A stretch of 63,837 bases of DNA, counting the filler, from Candidatus Rokuibacteriota bacterium (GTDB lineage Bacteria > JAUVQV01 > DATDCY01): assembly GCA_031406795.1 (NCBI GenBank). It is 7 parts of 7 records of this genome, joined end to end, with 100 filler letters (N's around TTAATTAATTAA, not from the genome) between each part and the next. Parts side by side here need not be neighbours in the genome. Positions count along the whole stretch, not along the records: positions 1 to 16,711 come from JANOHV010000086.1; 6 more parts are not named here. One strand, written 5' to 3'. The notes below the pieces were generated by a model. That model did no database searches and had not been told where the DNA came from. It saw nothing but the letters and a program-made list of their open reading frames with translations. Made by a program: the position numbers and the translations under genes. The stretch's first letter is position 1. Each line of letters begins with the position of its first letter. Shown here in pieces: positions 1-15,791 of the stretch.

Positions 1-1
1 C

Positions 2-43
2 GCCGCGATCCTGAGCAACCTCCAGGCGAAGGGCTCAGCGTGA
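2..43 (+). pseudogene. fcl: GDP-L-fucose synthase N-terminal fragment (AAILSNLQAKG)
   Basis: Translation matches the Fcl segment after HRGLVG (xAILxNLQxKG) and stops after a few codons; the same segment recurs at 4613-4657. Confidence 0.55.
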
Positions 44-270
44 TGATTCGAACGAACCGCCTCGACGCCGGACAGATCGAGGTCATGGACCCGGAGATGG
101 TGCAGGTTCTGCGCCGGAAGACACCCGCCGAGCGCCTGCAAAATTCCTTCGCGCTCTGGGAGTCAGCGTGCTCCATGCTCCAGGCCCACCTCTCGCACAC
201 TCATCGCAATTGGACGCCGGAGCACGTCCGGCGCGAAGTCGCTCACAGGATGTCGCATGGGGCCGTCTGA
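43..270 (+). CDS. Small TPAERL-motif protein, putative antitoxin partner of a nucleotidyltransferase
   Basis: 75 aa with RKTPAERL motif; overlaps the downstream NTase-like ORF. Confidence 0.6.
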   Translation: MIRTNRLDAGQIEVMDPEMVQVLRRKTPAERLQNSFALWESACSMLQAHLSHTHRNWTPEHVRREVAHRMSHGAV

Positions 271-454
271 ACTTTTCGAAATCAAAAAGATGGAATACTA
301 CCGTGAAGGCGGGTCCGAGAAGCACCTTCGGGACATCACGGGGATCCTCCTGACGACGGGCGCCGATGTCGAGCGCCCCTACATCGAGCACTGGGCGCAG
401 CAGCTCGGCCTGGGCGAGATCTGGGATGCCATCGAAAAGAAGTTGCGATCGTGA
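257..454 (+). pseudogene. Internally deleted nucleotidyltransferase (DUF6036-like)
   Basis: N-terminal MGPSEL joined directly to the typical C-terminal KMEYYREGGSEKHLRDI...YIEHWAQQLGL; catalytic GG...DxD core absent. Confidence 0.55.
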
Positions 455-460
455 CCACGA

Positions 461-521
461 TGAACCCGCCACGAGGCTCGGTTCTCGACAATCCCCTGCG
501 ATGGGGACCGGCGGTAGCGAT
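461..521 (+). repeat. Hairpin+ops linker repeat, copy 1
   Basis: TGAAC at 461, TCCCCTGCGATGGGGA hairpin, GGCGGTAG at 510-517. Confidence 0.85.
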
Positions 522-598
522 GCCCCGGAGACTTCGAGCGGCAGGGCTATGCACTTGATTCAACTGCTCCCTGAGGTCGCGCAGGATTGCCTCGGCAC

Positions 599-682
599 GT
601 CATTGCGAGGAGCGAAGCGACGCGGCAATCTGACGAAATCGGCTTTCGTTTCGTGAGATTGCTTCGCTTCGCTCGCAATGAC
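599..682. repeat. REP-like palindromic element
   Basis: GTCATTGCGAGGAGCGAAGCGACGCGGCAATCT ... AGATTGCTTCGCTTCGCTCGCAATGAC inverted arms. Confidence 0.8.
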
Positions 683-720
683 TTTGTGAGGTTGAGTCAA
701 GTGCACAGCCCTATTGAGCG

Positions 721-1032
721 ATGAAGCCCGCCCCCGTGAAGCGCCTCCCCCGTTTTGTCGCCCCCGCCTTCTGGGACCGGCGGTTCGGAGCCCTCTCCTG
801 GGAGCGCGACCGCGATTTCATCGTCCGCCGGCTGTTGGAGGCCGGGGACTGGCGCAGCGTCACCTGGCTGCGGGCCGCCCTGGGCGACGGTGGCCTGCGC
901 GCCTGGCTGACGGACCCCGCCCGGCGCCCCGGAGGATTGTCGCGCCGGCAGATCCGCTTCTGGGAAATCGTGCTCGACGTCCCACTCGGGCGCCTGCTCG
1001 AGGATGCGCGGAGGTCGCCATGGCCGCACTGA
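721..1032 (+). CDS. DUF6922-like antitoxin
   Basis: FWD...FIVRRLLEAGDW...RFW pattern; overlaps the AbiEii gene. Confidence 0.7.
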   Translation: MKPAPVKRLPRFVAPAFWDRRFGALSWERDRDFIVRRLLEAGDWRSVTWLRAALGDGGLRAWLTDPARRPGGLSRRQIRFWEIVLDVPLGRLLEDARRSPWPH

Positions 1033-1670
1033 TCGGCCCCGGGCGCTGGCACCCGGAGGTCATGACAAGAGCGCAAGCCGGGGTTCTCGCCCGGCTCGGC
1101 CCGGTTGCCGCCGCCGAGGGTTTCTACCTGGCGGGCGGTACGGCGCTTGCGCTGCACTACGGACATCGGCGCTCGGTCGACCTGGATTGGTTTTCGCCTC
1201 ACCCCATCGAGGATCCCCTGGGCCTGGCGGCCCGCATACGGGACAGCGGCATCAGGCTCGAAGTCTCGAGCGTCTCCCGGGGCACCCTGCACGCCCGGGT
1301 CAATCGCGTGCGAGTGAGCTTTCTGGAATTCAGGTATCCGCTGCTGACGAGGACGATGAGCTGGCCCGAGGCCCGGTGCCCCATTGCAGGCATTCGGGAC
1401 ATCGCCTGCATGAAACTCGCCGCGATCGCCCAGCGCGGGTCCCGGAAGGATTTCGTCGACCTCTGGGCATTGCTCGCCCACCGGCGGCGCCTGCCCGCCA
1501 TGCTGACCGACTACCGAAAGAAGTTCTCGGTGAACGACATCTCGTCCGTCATTTATGGTCTGTGCTACTTCGACGACGCCGAGGCCGAGCCGCTGCCGAT
1601 CATGCTTGCCCCGGCAGGGTGGCCGGAGATCCGCGCCGGCGTCACCGCGGCGTTGAAGAAGATTCTGTGA
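1020..1670 (+). CDS. AbiEii/AbiGii-family nucleotidyltransferase toxin (type IV TA)
   Basis: FYLAGGTALALHYGHRRSVDLDWF and MKLAAIAQRGSRKDFVDL motifs; RBS GGAGG before ATG 1020. Confidence 0.85.
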   Translation: MAALIGPGRWHPEVMTRAQAGVLARLGPVAAAEGFYLAGGTALALHYGHRRSVDLDWFSPHPIEDPLGLAARIRDSGIRLEVSSVSRGTLHARVNRVRVSFLEFRYPLLTRTMSWPEARCPIAGIRDIACMKLAAIAQRGSRKDFVDLWALLAHRRRLPAMLTDYRKKFSVNDISSVIYGLCYFDDAEAEPLPIMLAPAGWPEIRAGVTAALKKIL

Positions 1671-1822
1671 TTACCGTCCGGGGCGATGACCGGATGGAGG
1701 TAGTCGTTGTCGGAGGGTCGGTGAGGGACCTCAAAGGTGCCTTGCCGAAGCCGAGGAAGGTGTTGTCGCTCGAGGAGATGGACCTCGCGATCGCGAAGGG
1801 AGCCAGGAGAGCCGGACGGTGA
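1667..1822 (+). pseudogene. 5'-truncated AbrB/MazE-type (VapB) antitoxin
   Basis: SVRDLKGALPKPRKVLSLEEMDLAIAKG is a typical C-terminus; DNA-binding N-terminus missing; GTGA overlap with vapC. Confidence 0.6.
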
Positions 1823-2223
1823 TCGCGCTGGACACGAACGTGCTGCTGCGCTACATCGTTCGGGACGACGCCCGCCAAGCCGCCGCTGCAACGAAGCTCA
1901 TCGAATCGTCCTGCAAACCGGACTCCCCGGGAGTGATCGCACTCGTGGTGATGTGCGAGTTGGTCTGGGTTCTCGAGAGCGGTTACCGCTATCGGCGAGA
2001 ACAGGTCGCGGGGATTCTGAGGAAGGTTCTTGGTTCGCAGGACCTGCGGGTGGAGCGTTCGGACCTGGCTTGGCAGGCCCCCAATCGCTACGAGGTCGGC
2101 CCGGCGGACTATGCCGATTACGTGATCGGGCTGTGCGGAAGAGAGGAATCGGCGGACGCCACCTGGACGTTCGATCGTCGTGCAGCGGGCAGCCCCCTGT
2201 TCAAGGTGCTTTCCGGGAACTAA
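1819..2223 (+). CDS. vapC: PIN-domain VapC toxin
   Basis: IALDTNVLLRY...ELVWVL...DYADYVI...TFDR PIN motifs. Confidence 0.9.
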   Translation: MIALDTNVLLRYIVRDDARQAAAATKLIESSCKPDSPGVIALVVMCELVWVLESGYRYRREQVAGILRKVLGSQDLRVERSDLAWQAPNRYEVGPADYADYVIGLCGREESADATWTFDRRAAGSPLFKVLSGN

Positions 2224-2348
2224 CAGATGCTGACAAGGAAACAGCTTTGAAGACAATCGCCAGGATTGTGGAATGTGACGCAGACCGTCAGCTAACCCAT
2301 GAATAAAGTTTATAATTTATCAACAATGCCGTATCCTTGTTCGCAGAG

Positions 2349-2410
2349 TGAACGCATCCTTAGGACGCGCTTGCCGGCAGTCCCCTGCGATGGGGCCCGG
2401 CGGTAGCTTG
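2349..2410 (+). repeat. Hairpin+ops linker repeat, copy 2
   Basis: TGAAC 2349; CCGGCAGTCCCCTGCGATGGGGCCCGG; GGCGGTAG at 2399-2406. Confidence 0.9.
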
Positions 2411-2466
2411 TGAGCAACCGGGAATTCCTCTTTGAGACCGAGCGCCCCGAATACGTCTTCCTCATG
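2410..2466 (+). pseudogene. fcl: fcl internal fragment (FLFETERPEYVFL)
   Basis: Matches Fcl FFxxERPEYVFLAAA; repeated at 4424, 9092 and 9886. Confidence 0.7.
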
Positions 2467-2483
2467 GGGGCGGGTAAGCCACC

Positions 2484-2870
2484 GTGGACGTAGACAAACA
2501 GATTGATTACTGGCGCAGGAGCGCGCTCGAAGACCTCGATGCAGCGCAAGCCTTGGTCAAGCTGGGCAAGTACCGTCATGGGCTCTTCCTGGCCCACCTG
2601 TCCCTCGAGAAAATGCTCAAAGCCCATGTCTGTCGAATGACTGGCGATCTCCCGCCACGGATTCACCGATTGACCGCACTCGCCGAAAAGGCAGGCCTGA
2701 AACCCACCCGCCGCAGATCGATCTTCCTCGGTCACTTCGACCTCTACCAGTTGGAAGGGCGTTATCCGGATCCTTCTGCGGTGCCGGTTCCGGCCGCAGA
2801 ATGCCTGCGGGAAATGAAAAAGGCGGAGGATGTGCTGAAATGGTTGACAGAAAGATTGCTCAAACCATAA
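2484..2870 (+). CDS. HEPN-domain protein (HEPN/MNT TA)
   Basis: DLDAAQAL...FLAHLSLEKMLKA...RIHRL...RYP. Confidence 0.85.
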   Translation: MDVDKQIDYWRRSALEDLDAAQALVKLGKYRHGLFLAHLSLEKMLKAHVCRMTGDLPPRIHRLTALAEKAGLKPTRRRSIFLGHFDLYQLEGRYPDPSAVPVPAAECLREMKKAEDVLKWLTERLLKP

Positions 2871-3166
2871 GACATTTTATCCGTGAGGCCAAATCTGCGG
2901 GAATCCACGTGGAAAGCGTATTGCTCTACGGGTCGTACGCCAAAGGGACTGCCGGAGTCGATAGCGACATCGATTTGGCGGTCATCGCGCCTGAATTCGA
3001 TCGCAAGGGAAGCCGTGCGTGGGTACGAAAGCTCTGGGCCCTGCGCGCAATAACTGACAACCGCATAGAACCGCTCGCGGTTGGCCGTACCCAGTGGCTT
3101 GAGGACCAGGGATCGCCGATCATAGAGATTGTGCGGCGTGAAGGGATTTCGATCGCTTTGCGATGA
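2840..3166 (+). CDS. Minimal nucleotidyltransferase (MNT)
   Basis: LYGSYAKG...DSDIDLAVI motif; overlaps the HEPN gene. Confidence 0.85.
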   Translation: MVDRKIAQTIRHFIREAKSAGIHVESVLLYGSYAKGTAGVDSDIDLAVIAPEFDRKGSRAWVRKLWALRAITDNRIEPLAVGRTQWLEDQGSPIIEIVRREGISIALR

Positions 3167-3180
3167 AAAGGAAGAAGGCT

Positions 3181-3267
3181 ATGTGCAACATAAACGCCAA
3201 AATCTACATCGCCGGCCACCGCGGCCTCGTCGGCGGCGCCCACCACCGCCTCCTGGTCGGGGCCTGA
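3181..3267 (+). pseudogene. fcl: fcl N-terminal fragment (MCNINAKIYIAGHRGLVGGA)
   Basis: Characteristic Fcl start KIYIAGHRGLVG followed by a stop after 28 codons. Confidence 0.8.
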
Positions 3268-3348
3268 GCAGGCCAAGGGCGATCTCGAGGTTCTCATATG
3301 AGCAGGTCGATCCAGTTTTCAAGACACTCACGCCGAAGAATGCGGCTC

Positions 3349-3451
3349 TATGATATCGTGGAACAAGATATTGAAAATTGTGTTTGTTGAAGAAGCGGGT
3401 TCGGTTACGGTTGCTACAACCTACCCGGTGAAAAAGGAGCGGAGCCAATGA
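3349..3451 (+). pseudogene. DUF4258-like toxin C-terminal remnant
   Basis: KILKIVFVEEAGSVTVATTYP; ATGA overlap with the DUF2283 gene. Confidence 0.5.
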
Positions 3452-3666
3452 AAATCCGTTACGACGACCAAGTCGACACCGCATACATTCAGCTTTCCGA
3501 TCTTGTCCCTTCCGGCGTCATAGAGCTTGCCGCGGAGGCCAACCTCGATGTTACCGAGGATGGGGCTGTGGTAGGAATCGAAATACTGGATGCCTCGAAA
3601 AAATTCCCTCTTGAAACTCTTTTTCGGTGCGAGTATGAGCCTGAGATGTTTCTGAGCCATCATTGA
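3448..3666 (+). CDS. DUF2283-family protein
   Basis: MKIRYDDQVDTAYIQL...DG.VVGIEILDASK. Confidence 0.85.
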   Translation: MKIRYDDQVDTAYIQLSDLVPSGVIELAAEANLDVTEDGAVVGIEILDASKKFPLETLFRCEYEPEMFLSHH

Positions 3667-3680
3667 CTACCGACGCTCTG

Positions 3681-3742
3681 TGAACGCACCTTCTGTACCC
3701 GCTTTCCGGCAGTCCCCTGCGATGGGGACCGGCGGTAGCCTG
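3681..3742 (+). repeat. Hairpin+ops linker repeat, copy 3
   Basis: TGAAC 3681; GGCGGTAGCCTG at 3731-3742 fits GGCGGTAGnnTG exactly. Confidence 0.9.
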
Positions 3743-3778
3743 TTGAAGCGCCGCATCTCCGTCGTCGGCCTCGGCCAT
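3743..3778 (+). pseudogene. UDP-sugar dehydrogenase (Ugd/WbpO/TviB-type) N-terminal fragment
   Basis: TTG-KRRISVVGLG is the start of the Rossmann VVGLGYVG motif; first 27 nt identical at 7001. Confidence 0.65.
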
Positions 3779-3806
3779 GACCGCACCGGTGAAGTCGCGT
3801 CTGCCA

Positions 3807-4132
3807 ATGGCTGACACTTTAGAAAAGATCCAAGATCACTTCATCAGCGAAAGAGTCTTCTATTCCCGCCACGCGAAGTCAGAGATGCAACTCGAGGAGT
3901 TTGGAGAAATCTTGGACCGCGAGGTGGCTGAGGCCGTGGCTTCGGGGAGGATTATCGAGGATTACCCAGATGACTCTCCCTACCCGAGCTGCCTCATTTT
4001 CGGGACGACGGACGCAGGTCGTCCGATCCACATGGTATGGCCCATAGTGCGGAAGAGAATTTTACGATTATTGTGACGGTGTACCATCCCGATCCGCAAC
4101 GCTGGATCGGTTACGAAAGGAGGCTCCCATGA
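3807..4132 (+). pseudogene. DUF4258-family putative toxin, frameshifted near 4039
   Basis: IIEDYPDD.PYPSCLIFG...RPIH in one frame; IVTVYHPDPQRW..YERR continues in another. Confidence 0.75.
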
Positions 4133-4365
4133 AGTGCGTGGTGTGCCACAGTCCAGATATCGTCGAGAAGCGCGTCGATGAGGAGATCCGGATCGGCGAC
4201 AACATCTTCCTCGTGGACGTCGAAGCCCTCTCGTGCAAAAACTGTGGAGAGAGTTACTTCGACAGGAAAGCGATGCGGAAGATTGAAGAGGCGCGAACCA
4301 GACTCAGGGAACATTCAGTGACTTTCCAGGAGGTTGGCAAGGTTTTTCGAGCGTGTGTCGCTTGA
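4129..4365 (+). CDS. YgiT-type (MqsA-like) zinc-finger antitoxin
   Basis: MKCVVC...CKNCGESYF. Confidence 0.85.
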   Translation: MKCVVCHSPDIVEKRVDEEIRIGDNIFLVDVEALSCKNCGESYFDRKAMRKIEEARTRLREHSVTFQEVGKVFRACVA

Positions 4366-4424
4366 ACACGCCTTCTGAACGTACTTTCCGGCTGTCCCCT
4401 GCGATGGGGACCGGCGGTAGCTCG
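4363..4424 (+). repeat. Hairpin+ops linker repeat, copy 4
   Basis: TGAAC 4363 supplies the upstream stop codon; GGCGGTAG at 4413-4420. Confidence 0.9.
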
Positions 4425-4660
4425 TGAGCAATCGGAAATTCTTCTTCGAGCCCGAGCGCCCCGAATACCTCTTCCCCCCCCCGGCCAAGGTCGGCGGCAC
4501 CCACGCCAACAACACCTGGCCGGCGGAGAGATTGTTCCCGATTGACCAGCTCTACAACGTCGCCGTGAACGCCCGCACCACGCCGCTGGAACTGTTCACG
4601 CTGCTGCGCGACGGTCTCGCCGGCCCCGCGAGCTTGCGCAACTTGCAGGCGAAGAGGTAG
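4424..4660 (+). pseudogene. Mosaic of fcl internal, WbpP-like epimerase and fcl N-terminal fragments
   Basis: FFEPERPEYLF..AKVGGTHANNTWPAE (Fcl), DQLYNVAVNARTT.LELF.LLRDGL (WbpP-like), GLAGPASLRNLQAK (Fcl). Confidence 0.7.
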
Positions 4661-4692
4661 GCCGTCATATTTAATACATATTGTAAGTGCAG

Positions 4693-4728
4693 TTGACAAT
4701 GTGTACCGAAATGTATAACTTGTTGATA
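4693..4728 (+). promoter_or_regulatory. sigma70-like promoter overlapping an IHF-like site; probable leaderless start
   Basis: TTGACA at 4693; TATAAC/TAACTT at 4714-4721; TAACTTGTTGATA fits YAAnnnnTTGATW; ATG at 4728. Confidence 0.5.
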
Positions 4729-5923
4729 TGATAGCGAGAAGTTCAACGGCAACGCTGCACCGATTGGCCCGCGGCTTTCCTATCGTCGCGATCACCGGCC
4801 CGCGACAGTCCGGCAAGACGACCCTCGGCGGCAGTCCTTCCCCGACAAATCCTACCTGTCGCTGGAAGACCCGGACATTCTCGCTCTGGCCGAATCCGAC
4901 CCGCGCGGTCTCCTGGCAGCCCACCCGCTCGGCGCTATCATCGACGAGGCGCAGCGCGCCCCGCAGTTCTTCTCGTATCTGCAGACCCGCGTCGATGAGA
5001 AAGGCGCACCCGGGGCGTGGATCCTCACTGGTTCGCAGCAATTCGGGTTGCTCTCGGGGATAACCCAGTCTCTGGCGGGCCGGGTGGGTCTGCTCCAACT
5101 CCTCCCTTTCTCGCTCTCCGAGCTGCGCGATGCGGTCCGTCCTCTTGCCACGCTCGACGAGTATTTAGTGCAGGGCTTCTACCCCCCGCTGTACGACCGC
5201 CTGGTTTCCTCCAGCGACTGGTTCGCCGCCTACATCGCCACTTATGTCGAGCGCGATCTGCGCCAGCTGATCAATGTGCGCGACCTCTCTGCCTTCCAGA
5301 GATTCGTGAAGATGTGCGCCGCCCGCACCGGGCAATTGCTCAACCTTTCCGCTCTTGCGGCGGACTGCGGCATCAGCCACAACACCGCCGCCGCCTGGAT
5401 CTCGGTGCTCGAGGCAAGCTACATCATTCACCTGTTGCGCCCGCACTATCGCAACTTCAACAAGCGCATCGTGAAGACCCCCAAGCTCTACTTCTGCGAC
5501 GTGGGGCTGGCCGCCTGGCTGCTGGGGGTGCGGGAACCGGAGCAGGCTCGTTTTCACGCGCAGCGAGGGGCGCTCTTCGAGACGCTCGTGGTCAACGAGT
5601 TCCTGAAGCAGAGACTGAACGACGGTCAGCCGACAAACCTGTTCTTCTGGCGCGACAGCAAGGGGCTGGAGATCGACCTGCTGCTCGAGAACGGCGACGA
5701 CCTGACGCCGGTCGAGATCAAGTCGGGGCAGACCATCGTCCCGGATTTCTTCACGGGACTGAAGCAGTGGCTGGCGCTCTCGGGAACCCCCGTTCACCCC
5801 GCCTGGCTGATCTACGGCGGCGAACGCGAGCACCGGCGTGATTCCGTCGCGATCATCCCGTGGAACTTTCTTCCTGCCCAATTGCCCATGATACCTTCCC
5901 GCGAGCTCCGCGAACTTGCGTAA
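4728..5923 (+). pseudogene. AAA_14/DUF4143 ATPase with a frameshift near 4827
   Basis: GPRQSGKTT in one frame; IIDEAQ, TGS, KTPKLYF.D.GL and EIDL...EIKS in another. Confidence 0.85.
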
Positions 5924-5930
5924 CTTACCG

Positions 5931-5943
5931 TAATTACTTGATA
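5931..5943. promoter_or_regulatory. IHF consensus site
   Basis: TAATTACTTGATA is the reverse complement of WATCAAnnnnTTR; 46 nt before the repeat TGAAC, as at 6892. Confidence 0.55.
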
Positions 5944-5976
5944 ATTATTCTGTGAACCAATATTGTTTTTACACCG

Positions 5977-6039
5977 TGAACGCAGCCACCGCTGTCCGTT
6001 TTCCGGCAGTCCCCGGTGATGGGGACCGGCGGTAGCTTG
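5977..6039 (+). repeat. Hairpin+ops linker repeat, copy 5
   Basis: CCGGCAGTCCCCGGTGATGGGGACCGG; GGCGGTAG at 6028-6035. Confidence 0.9.
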
Positions 6040-6287
6040 TGAATATTCCGAACCCGGCGCATCCCCGGAGGCAATCAGCGACACAACCCGCCCCGGTGAC
6101 GCACCGCCCGCCGGGAAGCGACCGAGCTATCCGTGGGTCACGCGCCATCGAAAGCTCGCGCGCCGCTCGCGAGAGCGTGGAACTGCAGATGACGCCCGCG
6201 GAACGGCTGACGCTCGCGCTGGAGCTCTCCGACCTGTGCGAGGAACTGGCTGCCGCGGGACGATCCACGCTTGAGGAACAGGCGTGA
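6039..6287 (+). CDS. Small TPAERL-motif protein, putative antitoxin (start uncertain)
   Basis: MTPAERLTLALELSDL motif; GTGA overlap with the NTase gene. Confidence 0.5.
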   Translation: MNIPNPAHPRRQSATQPAPVTHRPPGSDRAIRGSRAIESSRAARESVELQMTPAERLTLALELSDLCEELAAAGRSTLEEQA

Positions 6288-6810
6288 CCCGCGCAGAAGT
6301 TCTGCGGACCGTCGCTGCCGACCTCAATGAGCTGGTCGAGGCAGGGACGCTGGGACGCTGGGACGCTGGGCGTTGTGCGGCGGGCTCGCGCTCGCTGTCT
6401 GGGGCGCGCCGCGGGCGACGCTGGACATCGACGTCCTCGCCGACCTTGCGGAAGGCCGTCCCGCCGCCTGGGTCGCCGAAGCGCTCGTTCTCAAGGGGTG
6501 GACCCTCATCGATCACGCCCGCCACCCCGGCGACCCGGTTCCGGAGCTGCTGCGGATGACGCGCGGCGGTGTCGGCGTCGATATCCTGATCGCCCATCGC
6601 ACCTGGGAAGCCGCCATGCTTGAGGAAGCCTCGATCGTGCCCTGGCAGGGGGTCGGCGTCCCGAGCGTGCGGGTCGAGGCGCTGGCTGCGATGAAGCTCC
6701 GCGCCGGAGGCCCGCAGGACCTCGTGGATGCCGGCCGTCTGGAGGCATTGCCGGATTTCGACCGCGGGCGCTTCACCGCATGGAAGAAGAGACTCCGGGT
6801 GCGGGATTAG
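6284..6810 (+). pseudogene. Nucleotidyltransferase frameshifted by an extra 8-bp repeat unit
   Basis: GGLALAVWGAPRATLDIDVL and MKLRAGGPQDLVD motifs; (GGGACGCT)x3 at 6344-6367. Confidence 0.75.
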
Positions 6811-6816
6811 CAAGCA

Positions 6817-6867
6817 ATGGACAAGAACGCCAAGATTTCCATCGCCGGCCACCGCGGCCTCTTTTGA
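6817..6867 (+). pseudogene. fcl: fcl N-terminal fragment (MDKNAKISIAGHRGL)
   Basis: Fcl start motif followed by a stop. Confidence 0.8.
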
Positions 6868-6891
6868 TCCGCTAACTCGCCTAACTTGTCG

Positions 6892-6934
6892 TAATTCCTT
6901 GATTATTCTCCTATGATACGGTATTCCAATTGCA
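6892..6934 (+). promoter_or_regulatory. IHF site plus sigma54-like -24/-12 promoter
   Basis: TAATTCCTTGATT at 6892-6904; GG(6920-6921)-N10-GC within CGGTATTCCAATTGCA. Confidence 0.5.
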
Positions 6935-6937
6935 CCG

Positions 6938-7000
6938 TGAACGCAGCCACCGCTGTCCGTTTTCCGGCTGTTCCCTGCGATGGGGACCGGCCGTAGCGTG
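6938..7000 (+). repeat. Hairpin+ops linker repeat, copy 6
   Basis: GGCCGTAGCGTG at 6989-7000 has one mismatch to GGCGGTAGCGTG. Confidence 0.9.
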
Positions 7001-7028
7001 TTGAAGCGCCGCATCTCCGTCGTCGGCT
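7001..7028 (+). pseudogene. UDP-sugar dehydrogenase N-terminal fragment (LKRRISVVG)
   Basis: First 27 nt identical to 3743-3769. Confidence 0.6.
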
Positions 7029-7091
7029 TCAACGGTCAGCCCTTTCTCAACATCTCGAACACCTGGATGCAGAAACTTATCGGAGTTCGCG

Positions 7092-7364
7092 ATGCGGATT
7101 GAGTGGGATCCGAACAAGGCGCGCACGAATCATCTGAAGCATGGAGTATCCTTCGAGGAAGCGGCTACTGCGCTGAGGGATTGCATGTCTAAGACGGGCG
7201 CCGATCCGGACCATTCCATCGGCGAGCATCGTTATATCACTTTTGGTTTATCGGAGAAGGGAAGACTCCTCGTGATCTCCCATACTGACGAGGGCGATCG
7301 AATCAGGATCATCAGTGCCCGAACGGCGGGCAGGGGGGAGCGGAAAATCTATGAAGAAGGATAG
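7092..7364 (+). CDS. brnT: BrnT-family toxin
   Basis: EWDPNKARTNHLKHGVSFEEA...IRIISAR. Confidence 0.9.
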   Translation: MRIEWDPNKARTNHLKHGVSFEEAATALRDCMSKTGADPDHSIGEHRYITFGLSEKGRLLVISHTDEGDRIRIISARTAGRGERKIYEEG

Positions 7365-7611
7365 CATTTCCAAGGTTGCGGAACAGCGCGCTCAGTATAA
7401 GTTGTCGGATTTTTCCAGTCCGATGGTGCGGGGGAAGTATGCCAAGCGTATCCAGGAGTCGTCGAACGTCGTCGTTTTAAAGCCCGAAGTTGCCGAAGCC
7501 TTCCCGAACGCGGATGCAGTCAACAAGGCGCTGCTCTCCCTTATCAAGATTGCAAGAACCTGCACTCACGCTGATGAACACCATGGCCGGCGAGCGAAAG
7601 CGCGCGGGTGA
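7351..7611 (+). CDS. BrnA-like antitoxin
   Basis: RGKYA...VVLKPEVAEAFPNADAVNKAL; stop codon lies in a partial linker repeat (GTGAACGCAGCCACC, 7608-7622). Confidence 0.75.
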   Translation: MKKDSISKVAEQRAQYKLSDFSSPMVRGKYAKRIQESSNVVVLKPEVAEAFPNADAVNKALLSLIKIARTCTHADEHHGRRAKARG

Positions 7612-7622
7612 ACGCAGCCACC

Positions 7623-7735
7623 CTAGCCGCCGATGAGGGTAATGTTGTTTCCCATGAGGAAGCAAAAAAGAGGCTGCTTGCCAATTGAAGCTCGAATGGA
7701 CCGAACCTGCGGTTCGAGACCCCTCGACATCTCGC
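7623..7735 (+). pseudogene. Remnant antitoxin C-terminus plus RelE/ParE toxin N-terminus
   Basis: ADEGNVVSHEEAKKRL* overlaps TTG-KLEWTEPAVRD. Confidence 0.55.
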
Positions 7736-7817
7736 GCCTGTACGAGATCCAGACAATATTCAGTGCATCTTGAAAAAAGTCATAGACAATTTTCGACTAC
7801 CATTGAATAATTCAGGC

Positions 7818-9038
7818 ATGATAACCCGAGACCTCCAGGGTGTCCTCACGGCCGACCTCGACCGCTACGACAAGATGTCGTTTGTCGCCGGCCCCCGCCA
7901 GACCGGCAAGACGACGCTCGCAAGGATGCTGATGGGGAAGCGCCAGGCCTCGCGCTACTGGAACTACGACATTCCGGAGGACCGCCTGCTGCTCACGCGC
8001 AAGCCATCGTTCTACAAGGAGGTCGATCGCCCCCGGGGTGTCAAGCCGCTGGTGGTTTTCGACGAACTGCACAAGTATCGATTGTGGAAATCCTACCTCA
8101 AGGGTGCCTTCGACGACGCGCACGCCGACTTCTCGTTCCTCGTCACCGGCAGCGGACGCCTCGACCTCTACCGCAAGGGAGGCGACAGCCTCGCCGGGCG
8201 CTATTTCCTTCACCGGCTCTTCCCCCTGACGATCGGCGAGCTTGCCACGACCCCGCGGCGTTCCCTCGAGGATTTCCTCGGCGGCCCCGATGAACTTCCG
8301 GCAGCCGGGGCCGCATCCCGCGATGCCTGGCGGGCCCTCGAGATCCTGAGCGGCTTCCCCGAGCCCTTCAACACCGGCGAAGAGTCTTTTTATCGCCGCT
8401 GGGCCCAGACCTACCGCAAGCAGGTGATCCTCGAAGACATCCGGGACCTGACCCACGTCCACCAGGTGAGCCGGATCGAAACCCTCGCCGTCCTGTTACG
8501 CGAGCGGGTTGGCGGACTGCTCTCCACGAACGCGCTGCGCGAGGACATGAAGACCGCCTTCGACACCGTCAAGAACTGGCTCGAGATCCTGCAGAACTTC
8601 TACCTCGTTTTTATGCTGACCCCATGGCACGGCTCCCTGGTGCGCAGCTTGCGCAAGGAGCCGAAGCTTTATTTCTATGACTGGGCAGCTGTCCCCGACC
8701 CGGCGGCGCGTTTCGAAAACCTCGTCGCGGTACACCTGCTCCGAGCCGTGACCGCCTGGACCGAGGCCGGCGCCGGCGAGTTCTCGCTGCACTTCGTTCG
8801 CGACCGCGAGAAAAGCGAGGTGGACTTCCTACTGGTCCGCGGCAAGAAACCGCTGGTCCTCGTCGAGGCCAAGCTGTCGGAGACCGAACCCGCCCCGGCG
8901 CTCATCAAGATGAAGAAGGCGCTCGGGATACCGGCGGTCCAGCTGGTGAACGTGCCGGGCATCTCCCGGAAGGCCGCCGGGAAAGGCGAGGGGATCCTGG
9001 TCGCCTCGGCGGATCGTTGGCTGGCGGGACTGCCATGA
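7818..9038 (+). CDS. AAA_14/DUF4143 ATPase
   Basis: GPRQTGKTT, FDELHK, TGS, KEPKLYFYD, EVDF...VEAK; TAGACA-N17-AATAAT just upstream. Confidence 0.9.
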   Translation: MITRDLQGVLTADLDRYDKMSFVAGPRQTGKTTLARMLMGKRQASRYWNYDIPEDRLLLTRKPSFYKEVDRPRGVKPLVVFDELHKYRLWKSYLKGAFDDAHADFSFLVTGSGRLDLYRKGGDSLAGRYFLHRLFPLTIGELATTPRRSLEDFLGGPDELPAAGAASRDAWRALEILSGFPEPFNTGEESFYRRWAQTYRKQVILEDIRDLTHVHQVSRIETLAVLLRERVGGLLSTNALREDMKTAFDTVKNWLEILQNFYLVFMLTPWHGSLVRSLRKEPKLYFYDWAAVPDPAARFENLVAVHLLRAVTAWTEAGAGEFSLHFVRDREKSEVDFLLVRGKKPLVLVEAKLSETEPAPALIKMKKALGIPAVQLVNVPGISRKAAGKGEGILVASADRWLAGLP

Positions 9039-9091
9039 ACGAGGCAATGATGGCTGGTACCTTGCAGAAGGAAACCGCCCTGGCGATCTTC

Positions 9092-9170
9092 GTGAGCAAC
9101 CGGGAATTCTTCTTCGAGACCGGGCGCCCCGAATACCTCTTCCCCGCCGCGGCCAAGCTCGGCGGCATCC
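9092..9170 (+). pseudogene. fcl: fcl internal fragment
   Basis: FFETGRPEYLFPAAAKLGGI. Confidence 0.75.
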
Positions 9171-9190
9171 GTTCCTGGAGGGGCTGAGCG

Positions 9191-9532
9191 ATGAAGATCG
9201 TTCGAGACCGGATTGATCTTGCAGAACTGAAAGACATGGCCGAACGGGGATTCGGGACTCTCGACAAGGCGGTGGTTGATATCGAAGCCGGCATCATGGC
9301 AATCGATGCCGAGCTTCACTCGGATCAGGAGGCGCTTCTGCTGGAAAACGGTTCGGCGCAGCGCGATCTGTGGGGAATCAACCTCTACCCGGACATCGCC
9401 GGCGAGGACTGGCTGGAATTCGACTCGATGATCAACCTGCGTCCAGGGTCCGGCAACAGGAGCCGGGGAGTCGATGACCCGGCCGTGCGAGAGAGGATCC
9501 GGGATATCGTGATGCGCCTGGTGCAGCGATGA
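9191..9532 (+). CDS. DUF5674-like protein
   Basis: KAVVDIE...ELHSDQE...GS.Q.DLWGINLYP...EFDSMINLRP..GNRSRGV. Confidence 0.75.
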   Translation: MKIVRDRIDLAELKDMAERGFGTLDKAVVDIEAGIMAIDAELHSDQEALLLENGSAQRDLWGINLYPDIAGEDWLEFDSMINLRPGSGNRSRGVDDPAVRERIRDIVMRLVQR

Positions 9533-9864
9533 CCGTCATGCACCGGGAGCTCGCCGCCGGCCGCTGGTTCGGCCTGCCGCTGGTCGAGCAGATGGCCAAC
9601 ATCGGCAGCGAGATCGAGCGGACGATTTCCTGGCGCGGCCGAAACGCGAAAAACAGCGCGGCGGCTTTCGAGCGGGGACTTGAGCTGCTCGACCTGACGA
9701 TCGCCGACCCCCGCCACCGCCGGCGCCTTCGGGAACTGGTGCGCGTGCGCGAAGCACTCGCCGATCACTTCGTTTTCGATAACAGCTTCGGTTCGACGGA
9801 CGAATCATGGCGCCGTTATTTCAACGCCTTCACCTATGCATCAGCCATCCGGAGGGGACGCTGA
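9529..9864 (+). CDS. Conserved hypothetical helical protein coupled to the DUF5674-like gene
   Basis: ATGA overlap; EQMANIGSEIER...FERGLELLDLT. Confidence 0.7.
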   Translation: MTVMHRELAAGRWFGLPLVEQMANIGSEIERTISWRGRNAKNSAAAFERGLELLDLTIADPRHRRRLRELVRVREALADHFVFDNSFGSTDESWRRYFNAFTYASAIRRGR

Positions 9865-9885
9865 TATTCATTGGCTCGAACCTGC

Positions 9886-9991
9886 CGGGAATTCTTCTTC
9901 GAGCCCGAGCGCCCCGATTCTTCTTCCCCGCCGCGGCCAAGCTCGGCGGCATCCACGCCAGCAACACCTGCCCGGCGGAGAGATCGTTCCC
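9886..9991 (+). pseudogene. fcl: fcl internal fragment (frameshifted)
   Basis: FFEPERP / FFPAAAKLGGIHASNTCPAE. Confidence 0.75.
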
Positions 9992-10046
9992 GTATGCCCA
10001 CTGAAGTCGACACGGTAATCTGCAAGCTCCAGACTGTCGTCCGCCC

Positions 10047-10685
10047 ATGATTGAATCAATGACAGCGGTCGGGCGCATCGGCTTCTTGTTCCTCTGCCTT
10101 CTCCTTCCGTTGAAGGATGCCGGCGCTGCGGGGGAGCCTGCGGGAACGTTCGCCGTCGTGGAGGGCGAAGTCGTTGTCGTCAAGCCCGGCTTCGACAACC
10201 GCGCGCGCGCCCGGACCGGTGACCCGGTCCTGGTCGGTGACATTCTAAGAACCGGGGGCAATGGCAAGACGAAGATCCTGCTGGCCGACGATTCCCTAGT
10301 CTTCATCCCCTCCCGGTCGGTTTTGCGGATCAACCAGTACGCATTCGATCCCGCGGAAAGCCGGCGGAGCGCGAGGATACAACTGCTGGAAGGGCGGGCA
10401 CGGTTCATCGTCGGCCGGCAGCGGTTCCGGAATTCCCTGTTCAGTGTGGAGACGGAGCACGCGGTTATCGGCGCCGGCCCCGCCGATTTTTCCCTTGCTG
10501 TGGCTGATGGGGAGTCGACCGTCGCGGTCATCGACGGCAGCGTCAGCGTGAAGAACATTTCCAACCTGATCATCGGGAGCATGAACGTTTCGACAAATCA
10601 GCAGTCAGTGATCGCCAGGAAGTCGCCACCCACCCAACCGGCGGTGATAACCTCAGGGCAAAGAAAGGAATACCGGAAGTTCTAG
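10047..10685 (+). CDS. Secreted FecR-domain protein
   Basis: Signal peptide; GD.LRTG, L.DDS, LLEG.ARF and V.V.DG.V.V pattern. Confidence 0.75.
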   Translation: MIESMTAVGRIGFLFLCLLLPLKDAGAAGEPAGTFAVVEGEVVVVKPGFDNRARARTGDPVLVGDILRTGGNGKTKILLADDSLVFIPSRSVLRINQYAFDPAESRRSARIQLLEGRARFIVGRQRFRNSLFSVETEHAVIGAGPADFSLAVADGESTVAVIDGSVSVKNISNLIIGSMNVSTNQQSVIARKSPPTQPAVITSGQRKEYRKF

Positions 10686-10790
10686 CAAACTTCATTCACC
10701 ATTTGTGACGCTTGCGCTACCGAAGCAATAGTGTTACTGTCGATATGGATTTTGTCCAGCCAATCAACAACCAAGGCAAGGAGTCGAGGC

Positions 10791-11414
10791 ATGAAGAAGA
10801 TGGTGAGTACCTTCTGTTTTCTCGGAGTTCTCGCTCTGACGCTTTTCGGCGTCCCCCAGAGCATCCAGGCAGCCGCGTTGACCGAGGCACAGCAGGCAAC
10901 GTTGACTGCGGCCCTCACTGAACGGAAACCCTACGCGGATATCATCAGCCAGGCCATGGCCGCGGGCATGGGTGCCGAAGAGGTCGTCCAATTCCTGTGT
11001 AATAACTGCAACAGCGCCCCGGCCTGCGTGTCCGATGTCGTGTACGCCGCGATCACGGGCGGGATGGATGCGGAGCAGGCGATGTCCGGAGCGCTGCTGG
11101 CCGGTGCGGACTTGCAGACAGTCGTCAACGCCGGAAAGTCGGCGGGCGCCAGCGGCGAAGCGATTTCCGCGGCCGCCCTCAAGAACGGCTTCACGGCGAT
11201 CCAGATCAGCAACGCCGTCTCGGGTATTCTGGGCACCGGGGCGACCAGGACGACCGGTGGCGGTCGTATCGGCGGGGGATCAGGCTTTGGTGGGTCGATC
11301 GGCGGACCGACCGGCGGCGGGTCGACCGGCGGCGGTACTGATGGTGGTATCGGCGGTGGGTCAGCCAGCGGCGGTGCCGGTGGCAGCGTGCCTGCGACCC
11401 CTTCTAAACCCTAA
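10791..11414 (+). CDS. Secreted protein with Gly-rich C-terminus
   Basis: RBS AAGGAG, signal peptide, CNNC..C, poly-Gly tail. Confidence 0.65.
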   Translation: MKKMVSTFCFLGVLALTLFGVPQSIQAAALTEAQQATLTAALTERKPYADIISQAMAAGMGAEEVVQFLCNNCNSAPACVSDVVYAAITGGMDAEQAMSGALLAGADLQTVVNAGKSAGASGEAISAAALKNGFTAIQISNAVSGILGTGATRTTGGGRIGGGSGFGGSIGGPTGGGSTGGGTDGGIGGGSASGGAGGSVPATPSKP

Positions 11415-12614
11415 ATGGAGACGAAATCTATGATCCGTTCCTCCCACAAGGGGCTCCTGCTGCTCCTCGCATCGGCGCTGCTGCTTCCCGGGGTCTCGCA
11501 AGCCCAGGAAGCGCCGCAGGATTCCCTTGCGCCCCTCCAGATCGGCCCGGTGATCGTCCATCCCTCCTTGTCCCTGAGAGAGACCTACAGCGACAACGTC
11601 TTTTTCACGGCGAAAGACACCAAGGGCGATCTCATTACCGCAATATCGCCCGGCGTGACGTTTCAACTGCCGTTTCGCACGCACATCCTGACTCTCGGGA
11701 CGAGCGCGGAATTCGTGATCTACGCGGACAACTCGAGCCTGAACGTCTCGCCCTTCCAGGTCTTCGGCCTCGGCGAGTTCAACATCGGGGACCGGGTCAA
11801 GCTCAAGGTGGGCGACACCTACCAGAGGAACGAGGAGTCGCCGCTGGAGTCGCCGAACGGCACTTCAGATGTGTACACCGCCAACGCCGCGGCGCTTTCG
11901 GTGAAGTATGCCTTCGTGGACATCGCCCAGGCGCAGCTGGATTACACGCGGACGTCGCTGGACTACCTCGACAGCAGCTACCGGACGCGTGAGGAGGACC
12001 TGGTGTCGGCCTACCTCTATTATCGCGTCATGCCCAACACCTCGGCCTTTCTCGAGTACGACTTCAAGAACGTGGCGTACGACACATCGGACACATTCGA
12101 CAACGTCGTGCACACCGGACAGGTCGGCGCGACCTGGGAGTTCACGGAATACTCGAAGGGCACGGCCAAAATCGGCTTCCTGGCCAAGGAGTACTCGGAC
12201 GATTCCCTGAAGGACTACACTACCGTGACGGCATCCGTCGACCTGCGGCACCAGCTCACGCCCGACGCGTCGGTGCGGCTGCTCGGGAAGCGGGACGTCA
12301 ACGAGGGCAAGTACGTCGACGCCCGGTACTACACCACGACCGGCTTGTTCGCCGATTTCACGTACCGCTTCCTGGAGCGGCTCTCCGGGGTGATCGAGGG
12401 CTCCTACGCGTTCGACGAGTACTCGAATGCCCGGGTCGGCTCGGTCATCGTCCGGGAGGACAAAACCGCCCACATCGGCCTCGGGGCGAAATACTCCTTC
12501 AACAGCTGGCTTGATTTCAGCCTCGGCTACGGTTATTCGAACCGCAACTCGAACATCGCGGATCTCGATGCCATCGTCAACACCGTCACCTTCAAGGTCA
12601 CGGCGGCTCTCTGA
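11415..12614 (+). CDS. EPS-associated outer-membrane beta-barrel protein
   Basis: Signal peptide, alternating aromatic beta-strands, YSDNVF and RNSN motifs; position before wza. Confidence 0.8.
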   Translation: METKSMIRSSHKGLLLLLASALLLPGVSQAQEAPQDSLAPLQIGPVIVHPSLSLRETYSDNVFFTAKDTKGDLITAISPGVTFQLPFRTHILTLGTSAEFVIYADNSSLNVSPFQVFGLGEFNIGDRVKLKVGDTYQRNEESPLESPNGTSDVYTANAAALSVKYAFVDIAQAQLDYTRTSLDYLDSSYRTREEDLVSAYLYYRVMPNTSAFLEYDFKNVAYDTSDTFDNVVHTGQVGATWEFTEYSKGTAKIGFLAKEYSDDSLKDYTTVTASVDLRHQLTPDASVRLLGKRDVNEGKYVDARYYTTTGLFADFTYRFLERLSGVIEGSYAFDEYSNARVGSVIVREDKTAHIGLGAKYSFNSWLDFSLGYGYSNRNSNIADLDAIVNTVTFKVTAAL

Positions 12615-12632
12615 TCCTGAGGGGTCTCCGAT

Positions 12633-12678
12633 AAGCCCCGGGGCGTGCAGCGTGCTACGCGCTCGCACCCCGGGGCTT
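12633..12678. repeat. Intergenic palindrome
   Basis: AAGCCCCGGGG ... CCCCGGGGCTT. Confidence 0.5.
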
Positions 12679-12716
12679 CATCCGTTGTCTCACGCAGGTA
12701 TGAGATCTTGACGAAG

Positions 12717-13535
12717 ATGCGCGCCTCTTTCATCAAACTCGCTCTGATTCCCATCGCGCTTTTTCTGCTCTCGAGCCTCGCCGCGAATTCCGCCTTCGGC
12801 CAGGAGTACAGCATCGGCGAGGGGGACCTGTTGCGGATCACCGTCTACGACAACCCCGACCTCACCACCGAGGCCCGGGTGAGCGGCGACGGCAAGATCA
12901 CGTTCCCGCTGATCGGCGACGTCCAGGTGAGCGGTCTGACCGCCACGGCGGCGCAGCTCAGGATCGCCGAAAGGCTCCGGGACGGCTTCGTCAGGAAACC
13001 GGAGATCTCGGTGTTCATCAAGGAGTACAAGTCGAAAAAGGTCACCGCGCTCGGCGAGTTCGTCAAACCCGGCCTGATCGAGTTGCGCGGCAACGCAACC
13101 CTGATGGAGGTGATCTCCGACGCCGGGGGAGTGACGGCCAACGCCGGCGACCTGATGATGATCAAGCGCAAAGTTCTCGCTGCCGGCGCGGCGCAGCCGG
13201 AGGATCAGACCATCACCATCCAGCTGGACACGCTGTTGGAAGGCCAGGACGCGGGCCAGAACATCATGGTCGTCGACGGCGACAGCATCTACATCCCCCG
13301 GGCGGCATTTGTCTACGTCAGCGGCGCCGTCAAGATCCCCGGGGTCTACAAGATGACCCGCGGGCTCACCGTCCTGAAGGCCATCACCCTGGCCGGCGGC
13401 TTCACGCAGAGAGCGGCGAAGAACAAGGTCAAAGTTATCCGCAAGTCCACTGACGGGGAGGAGACCCTCGCCGTCAGGATGGAGGATCTGATGTTGCCGG
13501 ACGACGTGATTACCGTGCCGGAGAGCCTCTTCTAG
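12717..13535 (+). CDS. wza: Polysaccharide export protein (Poly_export + SLBB)
   Basis: YSIGEGDLLRITVY...DGKITFPLIG; two SLBB repeats. Confidence 0.85.
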   Translation: MRASFIKLALIPIALFLLSSLAANSAFGQEYSIGEGDLLRITVYDNPDLTTEARVSGDGKITFPLIGDVQVSGLTATAAQLRIAERLRDGFVRKPEISVFIKEYKSKKVTALGEFVKPGLIELRGNATLMEVISDAGGVTANAGDLMMIKRKVLAAGAAQPEDQTITIQLDTLLEGQDAGQNIMVVDGDSIYIPRAAFVYVSGAVKIPGVYKMTRGLTVLKAITLAGGFTQRAAKNKVKVIRKSTDGEETLAVRMEDLMLPDDVITVPESLF

Positions 13536-13561
13536 GCGCCTGTGAAGAGGAGAGGCTCTGC

Positions 13562-15775: not shown

Positions 15776-15791
15776 TCGACCGGCACCGGCG

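Follow-up and report, generated by a model that had tools for sequence, protein, structure and literature searches.

A repeated hairpin–ops element in a toxin-antitoxin array of a Candidatus Rokuibacteriota genome, a probable leader and loading site for an RfaH-like NusG paralogue

The stretch of DNA analysed here (the window, 63,837 nt including filler) consists of chained contigs from a metagenome-assembled genome (MAG) of a sediment bacterium, Candidatus Rokuibacteriota bacterium (GCA_031406795.1, called G000 below; 4.1 Mb, 67% G+C, 278 contigs). On one of these contigs, the 16,711-bp C96 (JANOHV010000086.1, window 1-16711), a series of small toxin-antitoxin and defence-type genes is punctuated by copies of a short repeat in which a conserved GC-rich hairpin is followed by a sequence matching ops, the signal of the specialised elongation factor RfaH. 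Judging from its sequence and surroundings, we think that this element is probably a hairpin-assisted ops-type leader, that is, a loading site for an RfaH-like NusG paralogue encoded elsewhere in the same genome. The 5' end of the contig falls within the array.

Six copies of a 40-nt repeat family are found on the plus strand of the window, 80–100% identical to the reference copy (Table 1). Their alignment shows them to be co-oriented and confirms the nearly constant spacing reported in the original prediction: the start-to-start distances from TGAAC to the ops 8-mer are 49, 50, 50, 50, 51 and 51 nt, with five exact GGCGGTAG and, in copy 6, GGCCGTAG instead. The 8-mer occurs eight times in the window against 1.6 expected, a number reached in none of 100 shuffles; five of these matches are those within the repeat copies, and the remaining three (49177, 52780 and 55534) lie on other contigs in unrelated sequence without a hairpin. 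Among the six copies mean pairwise identity is 1.00 in TGAAC, drops to 0.47 over the 18 columns that follow, stands at 0.88 in the hairpin and 0.83 in the 12-nt ops and falls to 0.32 in the 3' flank, and across comparisons it ranges over 0.83–0.89 for ops and 0.47–0.49 for the 5' part, which splits into several subfamilies. The hairpin and ops are therefore far better kept than the 5' part, as had been claimed, which argues for selection. The further claim that ops is present in all six copies held for the 8-mer in five of them, and the full 12-mer GGCGGTAGnnTG is found only in copies 2, 3 and 5. A truncated seventh copy explains why the original prediction ran to position 7622.

Across the whole of G000 the good copies number 11, of which C96 carries six, C26 three and C21 two; the ends of C21 and C26 share an overlap of 141 nt. 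All but one keep GGCGGTAG and eight keep GGCGGTAGNNTG, and outside the element copies only three further 12-mer matches exist in the 4.1 Mb. A covariance model (R1) adds a twelfth, degenerate copy on contig C179 (GGCGGAGG, 42.5 bits). All copies point the same way as the flanking genes and as the exopolysaccharide (EPS) export genes.

Alignment of the copies together with their flanks resolves five parts: a promoter, GTGAAC, a variable stretch, the conserved GC hairpin and GGCGGTAGCYTG. In many copies -35 and -10 hexamers are present, spaced by 16–18 nt (mostly 17) and the -10 box ends 9–10 nt before GTGAAC, which by this geometry would mark about the transcript start. Nine of the 16 copies and homologues that could be scanned have hexamers scoring at least 8/12 at this geometry, as against 0.66% of 5000 sites picked at random from the genome (one homologous locus, L030, was left out because its contig ends there). 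Within the window only copies 5 and 2 reach this score; copy 6 is weakened (7/12) and copies 1, 3 and 4 have no such promoter. The variable stretch, of which there are about four subfamilies, can form a small 5-bp hairpin in seven of the eleven copies, with pair columns 17:24 reading GC in four, AU in two, CG in two and UG in two copies. The covariation score of the small hairpin is 0.168 against 0.107 ± 0.013 in shuffles, none of 500 of which reach it, a support that is modest because the structure was drawn from the same sequences.

The main hairpin reads GUCCCC-UGCGAU-GGGGAC with outer CCGG/CCGG pairs. Its core stem ends 12 nt before T11 of ops (alignment columns 58 and 70), and further possible pairs extend into ops itself. 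There is no U tract behind it, so that the hairpin is not followed by a terminator, and the array contains six terminator-like structures, below the shuffle mean of 8.9. Folding energies of single copies on the sense strand are not unusual (z from +0.58 to -1.85, the latter in copy 5). The antisense strand of copy 5 (window 5971-6046, minus strand) folds at -33.5 kcal/mol with z -2.73 and none of 200 shuffles as good, an observation from this one copy only. Start codons often follow 0–40 nt behind ops, often without a clear ribosome-binding site: GTG is at ops positions 12–14 in copy 5 and in copy C26_a, and ATG is at 12–19 in L030, in copy C26_c and in the sister genome described next.

Where does this signal stand in related genomes? 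The host phylum has only six species genomes in the collection compared. In the sister genome (G001, 3.6 Mb) GGCGGTAGNNTG occurs twice genome-wide, against four occurrences for the reversed control, and both 12-mer sites are in sense orientation in the leaders of polysaccharide operons with TTGACG or TTGACA promoters. The first leader has TTGACG-18-TATATT, GTGAAC, a hairpin changed to CCCCA/TGGGG and GGCGGTAGCCTG, matches the covariance model (33.2 bits, E 2.7e-5) and heads the genes for MarR_EPS (126.8 bits, cut-off 88), rmlB, rmlA, rmlD, gmd, cysC, fcl and ugd. The second has TTGACA-17-TATTCT, a different hairpin and the same 18 nt, GGCGGTAGCCTGTCCGAT, and heads genes for an AMP-ligase/DUF3473 deacetylase, AsnB and the exosortase EpsH. 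At about position 10240 of G001 contig C3 (L048) the MarR_EPS frame has no ATG, GTG or TTG before the conserved domain, and an ATG in another frame follows 5 nt past the 12-nt ops (positions 17–19); an assembly indel or an unusual start is possible. In G000 itself a further GGCGGTAGGCTG is found upstream of a Wzx-containing cluster at a contig end.

Beyond these genomes, public pattern scans returned 11 loci, of which three were true homologues and eight were chance matches (among them UDP-sugar dehydrogenase-like coding sequence). In L022 two copies stand in an array of similar make-up, with a DUF4143 ATPase, an MqsA-like protein, HicA/HicB, DUF6922 and MNT/HEPN, and in L026 a single copy, with ops reading GGCGGTAGCGTG, precedes an MNT/HepT-like pair and a Fic gene. 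No copy was found with the covariance model or the 12-mer scan in the relatives G002–G005, which are 77–95% complete and in three cases broken into 210–380 contigs, so that absence of the element from them does not follow. Covariance-model matches in G002 (E 0.08) and G003 (E 0.75) were rejected since they resemble coding sequence on reading, a judgement made without an open reading frame (ORF) or family check.

The genome also encodes a candidate for the factor that would read the signal. Of its two NusG-family genes the second, on contig C122 and adjoining a UbiA-type prenyltransferase gene, codes for a protein of 168 aa that among the NCBIfam models fits RfaH best (92.3 bits; cut-off 144.5), ahead of NusG (72.9), UpxY (61.1; NF033644, cut-off 100) and LoaP (41.4; cut-off 125). 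By sequence the paralogue is RfaH-like but outside the RfaH equivalog as delimited by the curated cut-off. Conservation extends across the order: orthologues are present in all four relatives searched (85, 80, 76 and 60% identical). More than 70 metagenomic clusters share at least 59% identity with it, and for several of these RfaH is the name given in the source; genomes with paralogues only 37–43% identical exist as well. In an alignment with E. coli RfaH the paralogue keeps K10, R16, T72, R73, G74 and V75, positions at which the housekeeping NusG reads Y, K, T, P, R and I, with only T72 in common. In the structure of RfaH:ops9, the side chains of K10, H20, R23 and R73 are described as contacting ops (PMC5995543). 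In the AlphaFold2 (AF2) model of the paralogue the N-terminal domain has a predicted confidence (pLDDT) of about 70–92. No ops was found upstream of the gene of the paralogue, which has its own promoter. Rho is present in G000 (701 bits).

Taking the anatomy of the element, its contexts and the presence of the paralogue and of Rho as the footing, we propose the following mechanism. Each repeat would be a transcribed 5' leader of about 65 nt, some with their own sigma70-type promoter. The promoter would fire and the polymerase, having made about 60 nt, would pause at ops T11/G12, as RNA polymerase is described to do at position 11 of E. coli ops (PMC5995543). The nascent hairpin, 11–13 nt behind the RNA 3' end, would stabilise the pause, allowing the paralogue to read the exposed non-template GGCGGTAG and to stay on the polymerase. 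The polymerase modified in this way would resist Rho and pauses, with NusG-Rho termination excluded, and might also, as pure conjecture on our part, aid ribosome loading at the start codons 0–40 nt downstream; the ops pause has been suggested to favour 30S loading in the absence of ribosome-binding sites (PMC5995543). The sister species has the signal at the head of EPS operons, once each. In G000 the module would have been multiplied by recombination together with toxin-antitoxin/defence cassettes and fragments of the GDP-L-fucose synthase gene (fcl), giving a variable island upstream of EPS export genes in which each promoter-bearing copy provides its own transcripts with their own loading site.

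A number of observations weigh against this proposal. E. coli RfaH stays bound after a single loading, so antitermination alone needs neither multiple copies nor reloading. Three of the six window copies deviate from the 12-mer at positions that are important in E. coli, copy 6 by a G4C change and copies 1 and 4 by the lack of TG at positions 11–12. G4C is described as abolishing RfaH action in E. coli (PMC5995543). The covariation test that the original prediction had envisaged gave nothing beyond shuffles for the main hairpin (94.8% of cells paired among 19 distinct sequences, 128 of 500 shuffles as good), although with a hairpin so conserved in sequence the test is uninformative. The close homologues (L022, L026 and a contig from sequencing run X5) head toxin-antitoxin cassettes and not sugar genes, and in L030 the single copy is followed immediately by an ATP-grasp ORF whose start is only weakly WecB-like. 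The counterpart in G000 of the first G001 leader (C126 about 4100-4230, minus strand, against G001:C3 9890-10330) has kept the promoter and TGAAC but lost ops and MarR_EPS, the rml leader of G003 reads GGCGCCAGCCTG, and both genomes keep the NusG paralogue despite these altered leaders. On the side of the factor, besides its shortfall against the RfaH cut-off (TIGR01955), H20 is replaced by Q and R23 aligns to L beside an indel and is not kept. The AF2 C-terminal domain (residues 106–168, pLDDT below 50) is drawn as strands and is not RfaH-like helical, a low-confidence result which gives no verdict on a helical fold or fold switching. The bin with L022 lacks an orthologue of the paralogue, and the element there lies on a single 5.4-kb contig, which may be mis-binned. 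On C179 part of the array occurs in a second version, 89–93% identical, which in a MAG makes strain mixing possible, and there is no RNA run among the sequencing runs listed as holding the array.

In this lineage the motif behaves like a leader signal of the ops type, and the ops reading is to that extent supported: both sites in the sister genome are in promoter-bearing polysaccharide leaders and the paralogue is present, but the window copies directly precede toxin-antitoxin genes. The original prediction had further proposed that the copies could reload the factor to carry transcription through foreign genes into the EPS locus, and this part is not supported: copies 2 and 5, and weakly copy 6, have promoter-like hexamers of their own, so that the copies look like separate leaders of cassette operons and not like reload stations. 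What then is the reason for so many copies? The junction of ops to the middle of fcl is identical in three copies (2, 4 and C26_b), and Logan contigs from other runs join the repeats differently. In runs X1 and X3 position 9157 is joined to 9973 between two fcl mid-gene repeats, with the DUF5674 cassette removed, and in run X5, from a second study, the 3' end of the element is joined to the DUF4258 cassette (2413 to 3807). Together with the duplicated fcl scars and the second array version on C179, this leads us to think that the multiplicity of copies is better explained by recombination and duplication, and we infer that copies which lack a promoter or have a damaged ops (G4C in copy 6, no TG at 11–12 in copies 1 and 4) may be decaying.

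The same joints and junctions, together with the divergence of the cassettes within 9–14 nt past GGCGGTAG, the truncated relic at 7608-7622 and the cassette-like layout in which one conserved repeat stands between co-oriented toxin-antitoxin modules both in G000 and in L022, would also be expected if the element were chiefly a site of recombination or gene capture. It would then be a homology patch or the target of an unknown site-specific recombinase, at which toxin-antitoxin cassettes enter, leave and are rearranged in the manner of a non-canonical integron, and the likeness to ops would be incidental or secondary. We regard this as improbable, because the three array contigs have no recombinase gene, the integrases found elsewhere in the genome come with ordinary attC sites unlike the element, and the element has neither inverse core sites nor a fixed crossover point. 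From the fcl-to-fcl joint it is seen that any repeat can serve and that plain homologous recombination is enough, and a recombination site would leave unexplained both the fixed distance to promoters and the recurrence of the bare 12-mer in the non-homologous EPS leaders of G001.

A role at the RNA level that needs no NusG paralogue, such as a stabiliser of the 5' untranslated region, an RNase processing site or the site of an RNA-binding regulator, would fit a conserved hairpin near the predicted 5' end of the transcript and some compensatory change in the small hairpin (0.168 against 0.107 in shuffles, 0/500), and there is a precedent in LoaP, described as depending on a leader RNA hairpin (PMC12691694). 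We nevertheless consider it decidedly improbable. The small-hairpin structure, drawn from the sequences on which it was scored, fits only seven of the 11 copies, the main hairpin lacks covariation and folding energies are ordinary, the paralogue scores far below the LoaP cut-off (41.4 against 125), and the best-conserved single-stranded part is the ops 8-mer, which recurs in other EPS leaders without the sequence of the hairpin. Still less credence, and in our opinion very little, is due to the view that the copies are passive relics, mostly inert, of an EPS leader duplicated by unequal crossing-over and strain-to-strain recombination, their conservation reflecting recent origin or gene conversion. 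It can point to the fcl fragments duplicated along with the copies, to the several copies with changes that would be disabling in E. coli, to the degenerate C179 copy with its GGCGGAGG and to remnants at 7608-7622 and about 9082-9100. However, the 5' parts, at 47% identity, split into several subfamilies whose promoters differ, with hairpin and ops still 83–89% identical, which is not the pattern of recent duplication, and no fewer than three independent assemblies have this element ahead of toxin-antitoxin cassettes.

Known mobile or structural elements were considered as well. Repetitive extragenic palindromes (REPs), miniature inverted-repeat transposable elements (MITEs) and insertion sequence (IS) ends were rejected, as the 12 copies are co-oriented in two or three array regions and have no terminal inverted repeats (ISfinder was not compared). 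Rfam gave no matching family, with only two chance matches at E up to 5, and blastn against plasmid records gave no match to the element, so the alternative that it is a known IS end or REP, named in the original prediction, found no support. An integron attC was rejected too, there being no RYYYAAC/GTTRRRY inverse core sites in the alignment and no integrase on the array contigs. G000 does encode three integron integrases (374–402 bits against a cut-off of 265) on other contigs (C235 about 43.5-46.2 kb, C255 1-700 and C113 19.9-20.4 kb), and its true attC sites (GCTAAC...GTTAGC, with low-GC cassettes) adjoin these integrases and are unrelated in sequence to the element. On C235 the last attC appears to be cut at ...ACGT|GTGCG, followed by structured RNA-like sequence and a reverse-transcriptase-like ORF, an arrangement that would fit a group IIC-attC intron.

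The features of the window are collected in Table 1.

Table 1. Element copies, array, EPS locus and fcl fragments (window coordinates).
Feature	Position	Strand	Score (bits)	Description
Copy 1	460..521 (40-nt core 479-518)	+	60.9	ATGAAC; degenerate 5' arm; hairpin TCCCC-TGCGAT-GGGGA; ops GGCGGTAGCGAT, no TG at positions 11-12; no promoter-like hexamers (6/12)
Copy 2	2309..2410 (core 2368-2407)	+	84	Promoter-like TTTATA-17-TATCCT (8/12); GTGAAC at 2348; small hairpin GCATCC/GGACGC; main hairpin; GGCGGTAGCTTG; fused directly to fcl mid-gene fragment
Copy 3	3680..3742 (core 3700-3739)	+	87	GTGAAC; main hairpin; GGCGGTAGCCTG; no convincing promoter (7/12); begins 15 nt past DUF2283 stop codon
Copy 4	4362..4424 (core 4382-4421)	+	77.5	TTGAAC; main hairpin; GGCGGTAGCTCG, TG shifted to 13-14; overlaps stop of MqsA-like gene; joined to fcl mid-gene fragment
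Copy 5	5938..6039 (core 5997-6036)	+	90.5	TTGATA-17-TATTGT promoter (9/12), picked up by the generic scan too; GTGAAC at 5976; GCAGC/GCTGT small hairpin; main hairpin; GGCGGTAGCTTG; ORF start is the GTG of positions 12-14
Copy 6	6899..7000 (core 6958-6997)	+	82.7	Weakened promoter TTGATT-17-TATTCC (7/12); GTGAAC at 6937; main hairpin with GTTCCC; ops GGCCGTAGCGTG, G4-to-C change
Truncated relic (seventh copy)	7608..7622	+		First 15 nt of the element only (GTGAACGCAGCCACC); hairpin and ops missing
Array of co-oriented toxin-antitoxin/defence-type genes between copies	1..9864	+		Rv0078B-like antitoxin; DUF6922 and nucleotidyltransferase-like gene; PIN; HEPN/MNT; DUF2283; DUF4258 and MqsA-like; two AAA_14/DUF4143 ATPases (one frameshifted); AbiEii-like; BrnT; DUF5674
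EPS locus past the array, co-oriented	10047..16711	+		FecR-like; unknown gene; BBP2_2 outer-membrane barrel; Wza-type exporter; Wzz/tyrosine-kinase-type chain-length protein
fcl mid-gene fragment	2408-2470	+		GDP-L-fucose synthase
fcl mid-gene fragments	4424-4660, 9090-9170, 9886-10000			GDP-L-fucose synthase
fcl N-terminal fragments	3181-3266, 6817-6866			GDP-L-fucose synthase

Several features of the neighbourhood deserve mention in their own right. Between copy 1 and the DUF6922 gene there is a MITE-like insertion of about 170 bp (543..712), bounded by 22-nt terminal inverted repeats that are 91% complementary and with further inverted repeats nested inside, for which L022 has no counterpart at this spot. 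The inner part of the insertion (about 598-631) has a word depth of 244–1383, against about 5–20 in the flanks, in four sediment runs, so that this sequence must be very abundant in the sediment community. The coding sequence of the first AAA_14/DUF4143 ATPase is spread across two frames (4728-5063 and 5048-5923), either by a frameshift or by an assembly error, and a strong promoter-like TTGACA...TATAAC is found just upstream of it at about 4693-4720. On C179 (8.4-13.1 kb) the blocks shared with the window are 77–93% identical to 124-383, 6138-6794, 7752-9038 and 9165-9709. This second version comes after rml-gmd-cysC-ugd genes, on a contig that overlaps C126 by 113 nt, and it may be either a paralogue of the C96 array or part of a co-binned second strain. 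It ends in an ORF whose start looks like that of a putative IS21-type transposase. An orthologue of the EPS export locus was not found in the relatives (FecR-like query in none of four, Wzc-like query only 30–40% identical).

If the element does work as proposed, its interest lies in several directions. RfaH/ops is the model case of a sequence-specific elongation factor and is known almost only from Proteobacteria, and the E. coli-type non-template signal is now seen in a phylum with six species genomes known. With ops attached to toxin-antitoxin/defence cassettes as well as to sugar operons, the notion of NusG paralogues as protectors of foreign genes against silencing would reach further. 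One could go further and see in the module a portable licence tag and homology patch, by which acquired cassettes join the RfaH-like regulon and escape Rho/NusG silencing, the promoter, pause hairpin and ops travelling with horizontally acquired genes. The same conserved 45 nt would then serve as the patch for cassette capture and shuffling, and the island would be an integrase-free cassette array within an EPS super-operon, in a barely sampled phylum. We think this extension rather unlikely as it stands. No paper was found on ops sites before toxin-antitoxin cassettes or in cassette arrays, a weak negative from a search that was not directed at toxin-antitoxin genes. The element is short and defined and the factor small (168 aa), and the idea can be tested directly in vitro.

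How does the element compare with known systems? Integron arrays likewise consist of co-oriented, small, toxin-antitoxin-rich cassettes with a conserved hairpin-forming repeat of about 60–120 nt between them. In contrast, the element has no inverse core sites, the array contigs have no integrase and the attC sites of G000 are unrelated, and the fixed distance to promoters and the position just before start codons indicate that the repeat belongs to the 5' end of the cassette, unlike attC. The comparison with JUMPStart, a 39-nt consensus that extends upstream from ops and includes it, covers the ops part. As in the E. coli system, the 12-nt signal GGCGGTAGnnTG is on the coding strand and in G001 lies in transcribed leaders that precede long polysaccharide operons, an RfaH-like paralogue is encoded apart from the target operon, and start codons are close behind the signal, often without a clear ribosome-binding site. 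The element differs in its many copies in one island, most of them heading toxin-antitoxin/defence cassettes, in the paralogue scoring under the RfaH hidden Markov model cut-off, and in its host, from a phylum of which the collection has only six species genomes. RfaH proteins are described as being about 95% proteobacterial (PMC7593976). The element also differs in having a conserved nascent-RNA hairpin which abuts the signal, ending 12 nt before T11, while the pause at RfaH ops is described as hairpin-less and of the backtrack type (10.1101/2024.06.21.599965).

For a leader hairpin one has to look to other NusG paralogues. LoaP of the Bacillus velezensis dfn operon is described as needing a small leader RNA hairpin (PMC12691694), as the paralogue may here, but LoaP antagonises NusA at intrinsic terminators, and in our array no terminator follows the hairpin and the LoaP score is low. 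A further parallel is with Bacteroides UpxY and its ops_X sites, where a leader pause likewise combines a non-template DNA signal with a nascent-RNA pause hairpin and the targets are polysaccharide operons, as here in G001. The ops_X pause hairpins are described as reaching -12 to -9 and, with NusA, as prolonging the pause for UpxY loading (10.1101/2024.06.21.599965; also PMC11685472). The core stem of our element, ending 12 nt before T11, lies at this same distance, and the 'escape duplex' of the ops_X sites may have its equivalent in the outer pairs here that extend into ops. On the other hand, UpxY is the first gene of each target operon, with an own UpxY/UpxZ pair per operon, whereas here a single paralogue sits beside a UbiA-type gene with no element nearby and falls short of the UpxY cut-off (61.1 against 100), and the DNA signal is of the E. 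coli type. The combination of ops with a pause-type RNA hairpin, so far described for the unrelated Bacteroides UpxY sites, hints that hairpin-assisted loading may be more general.

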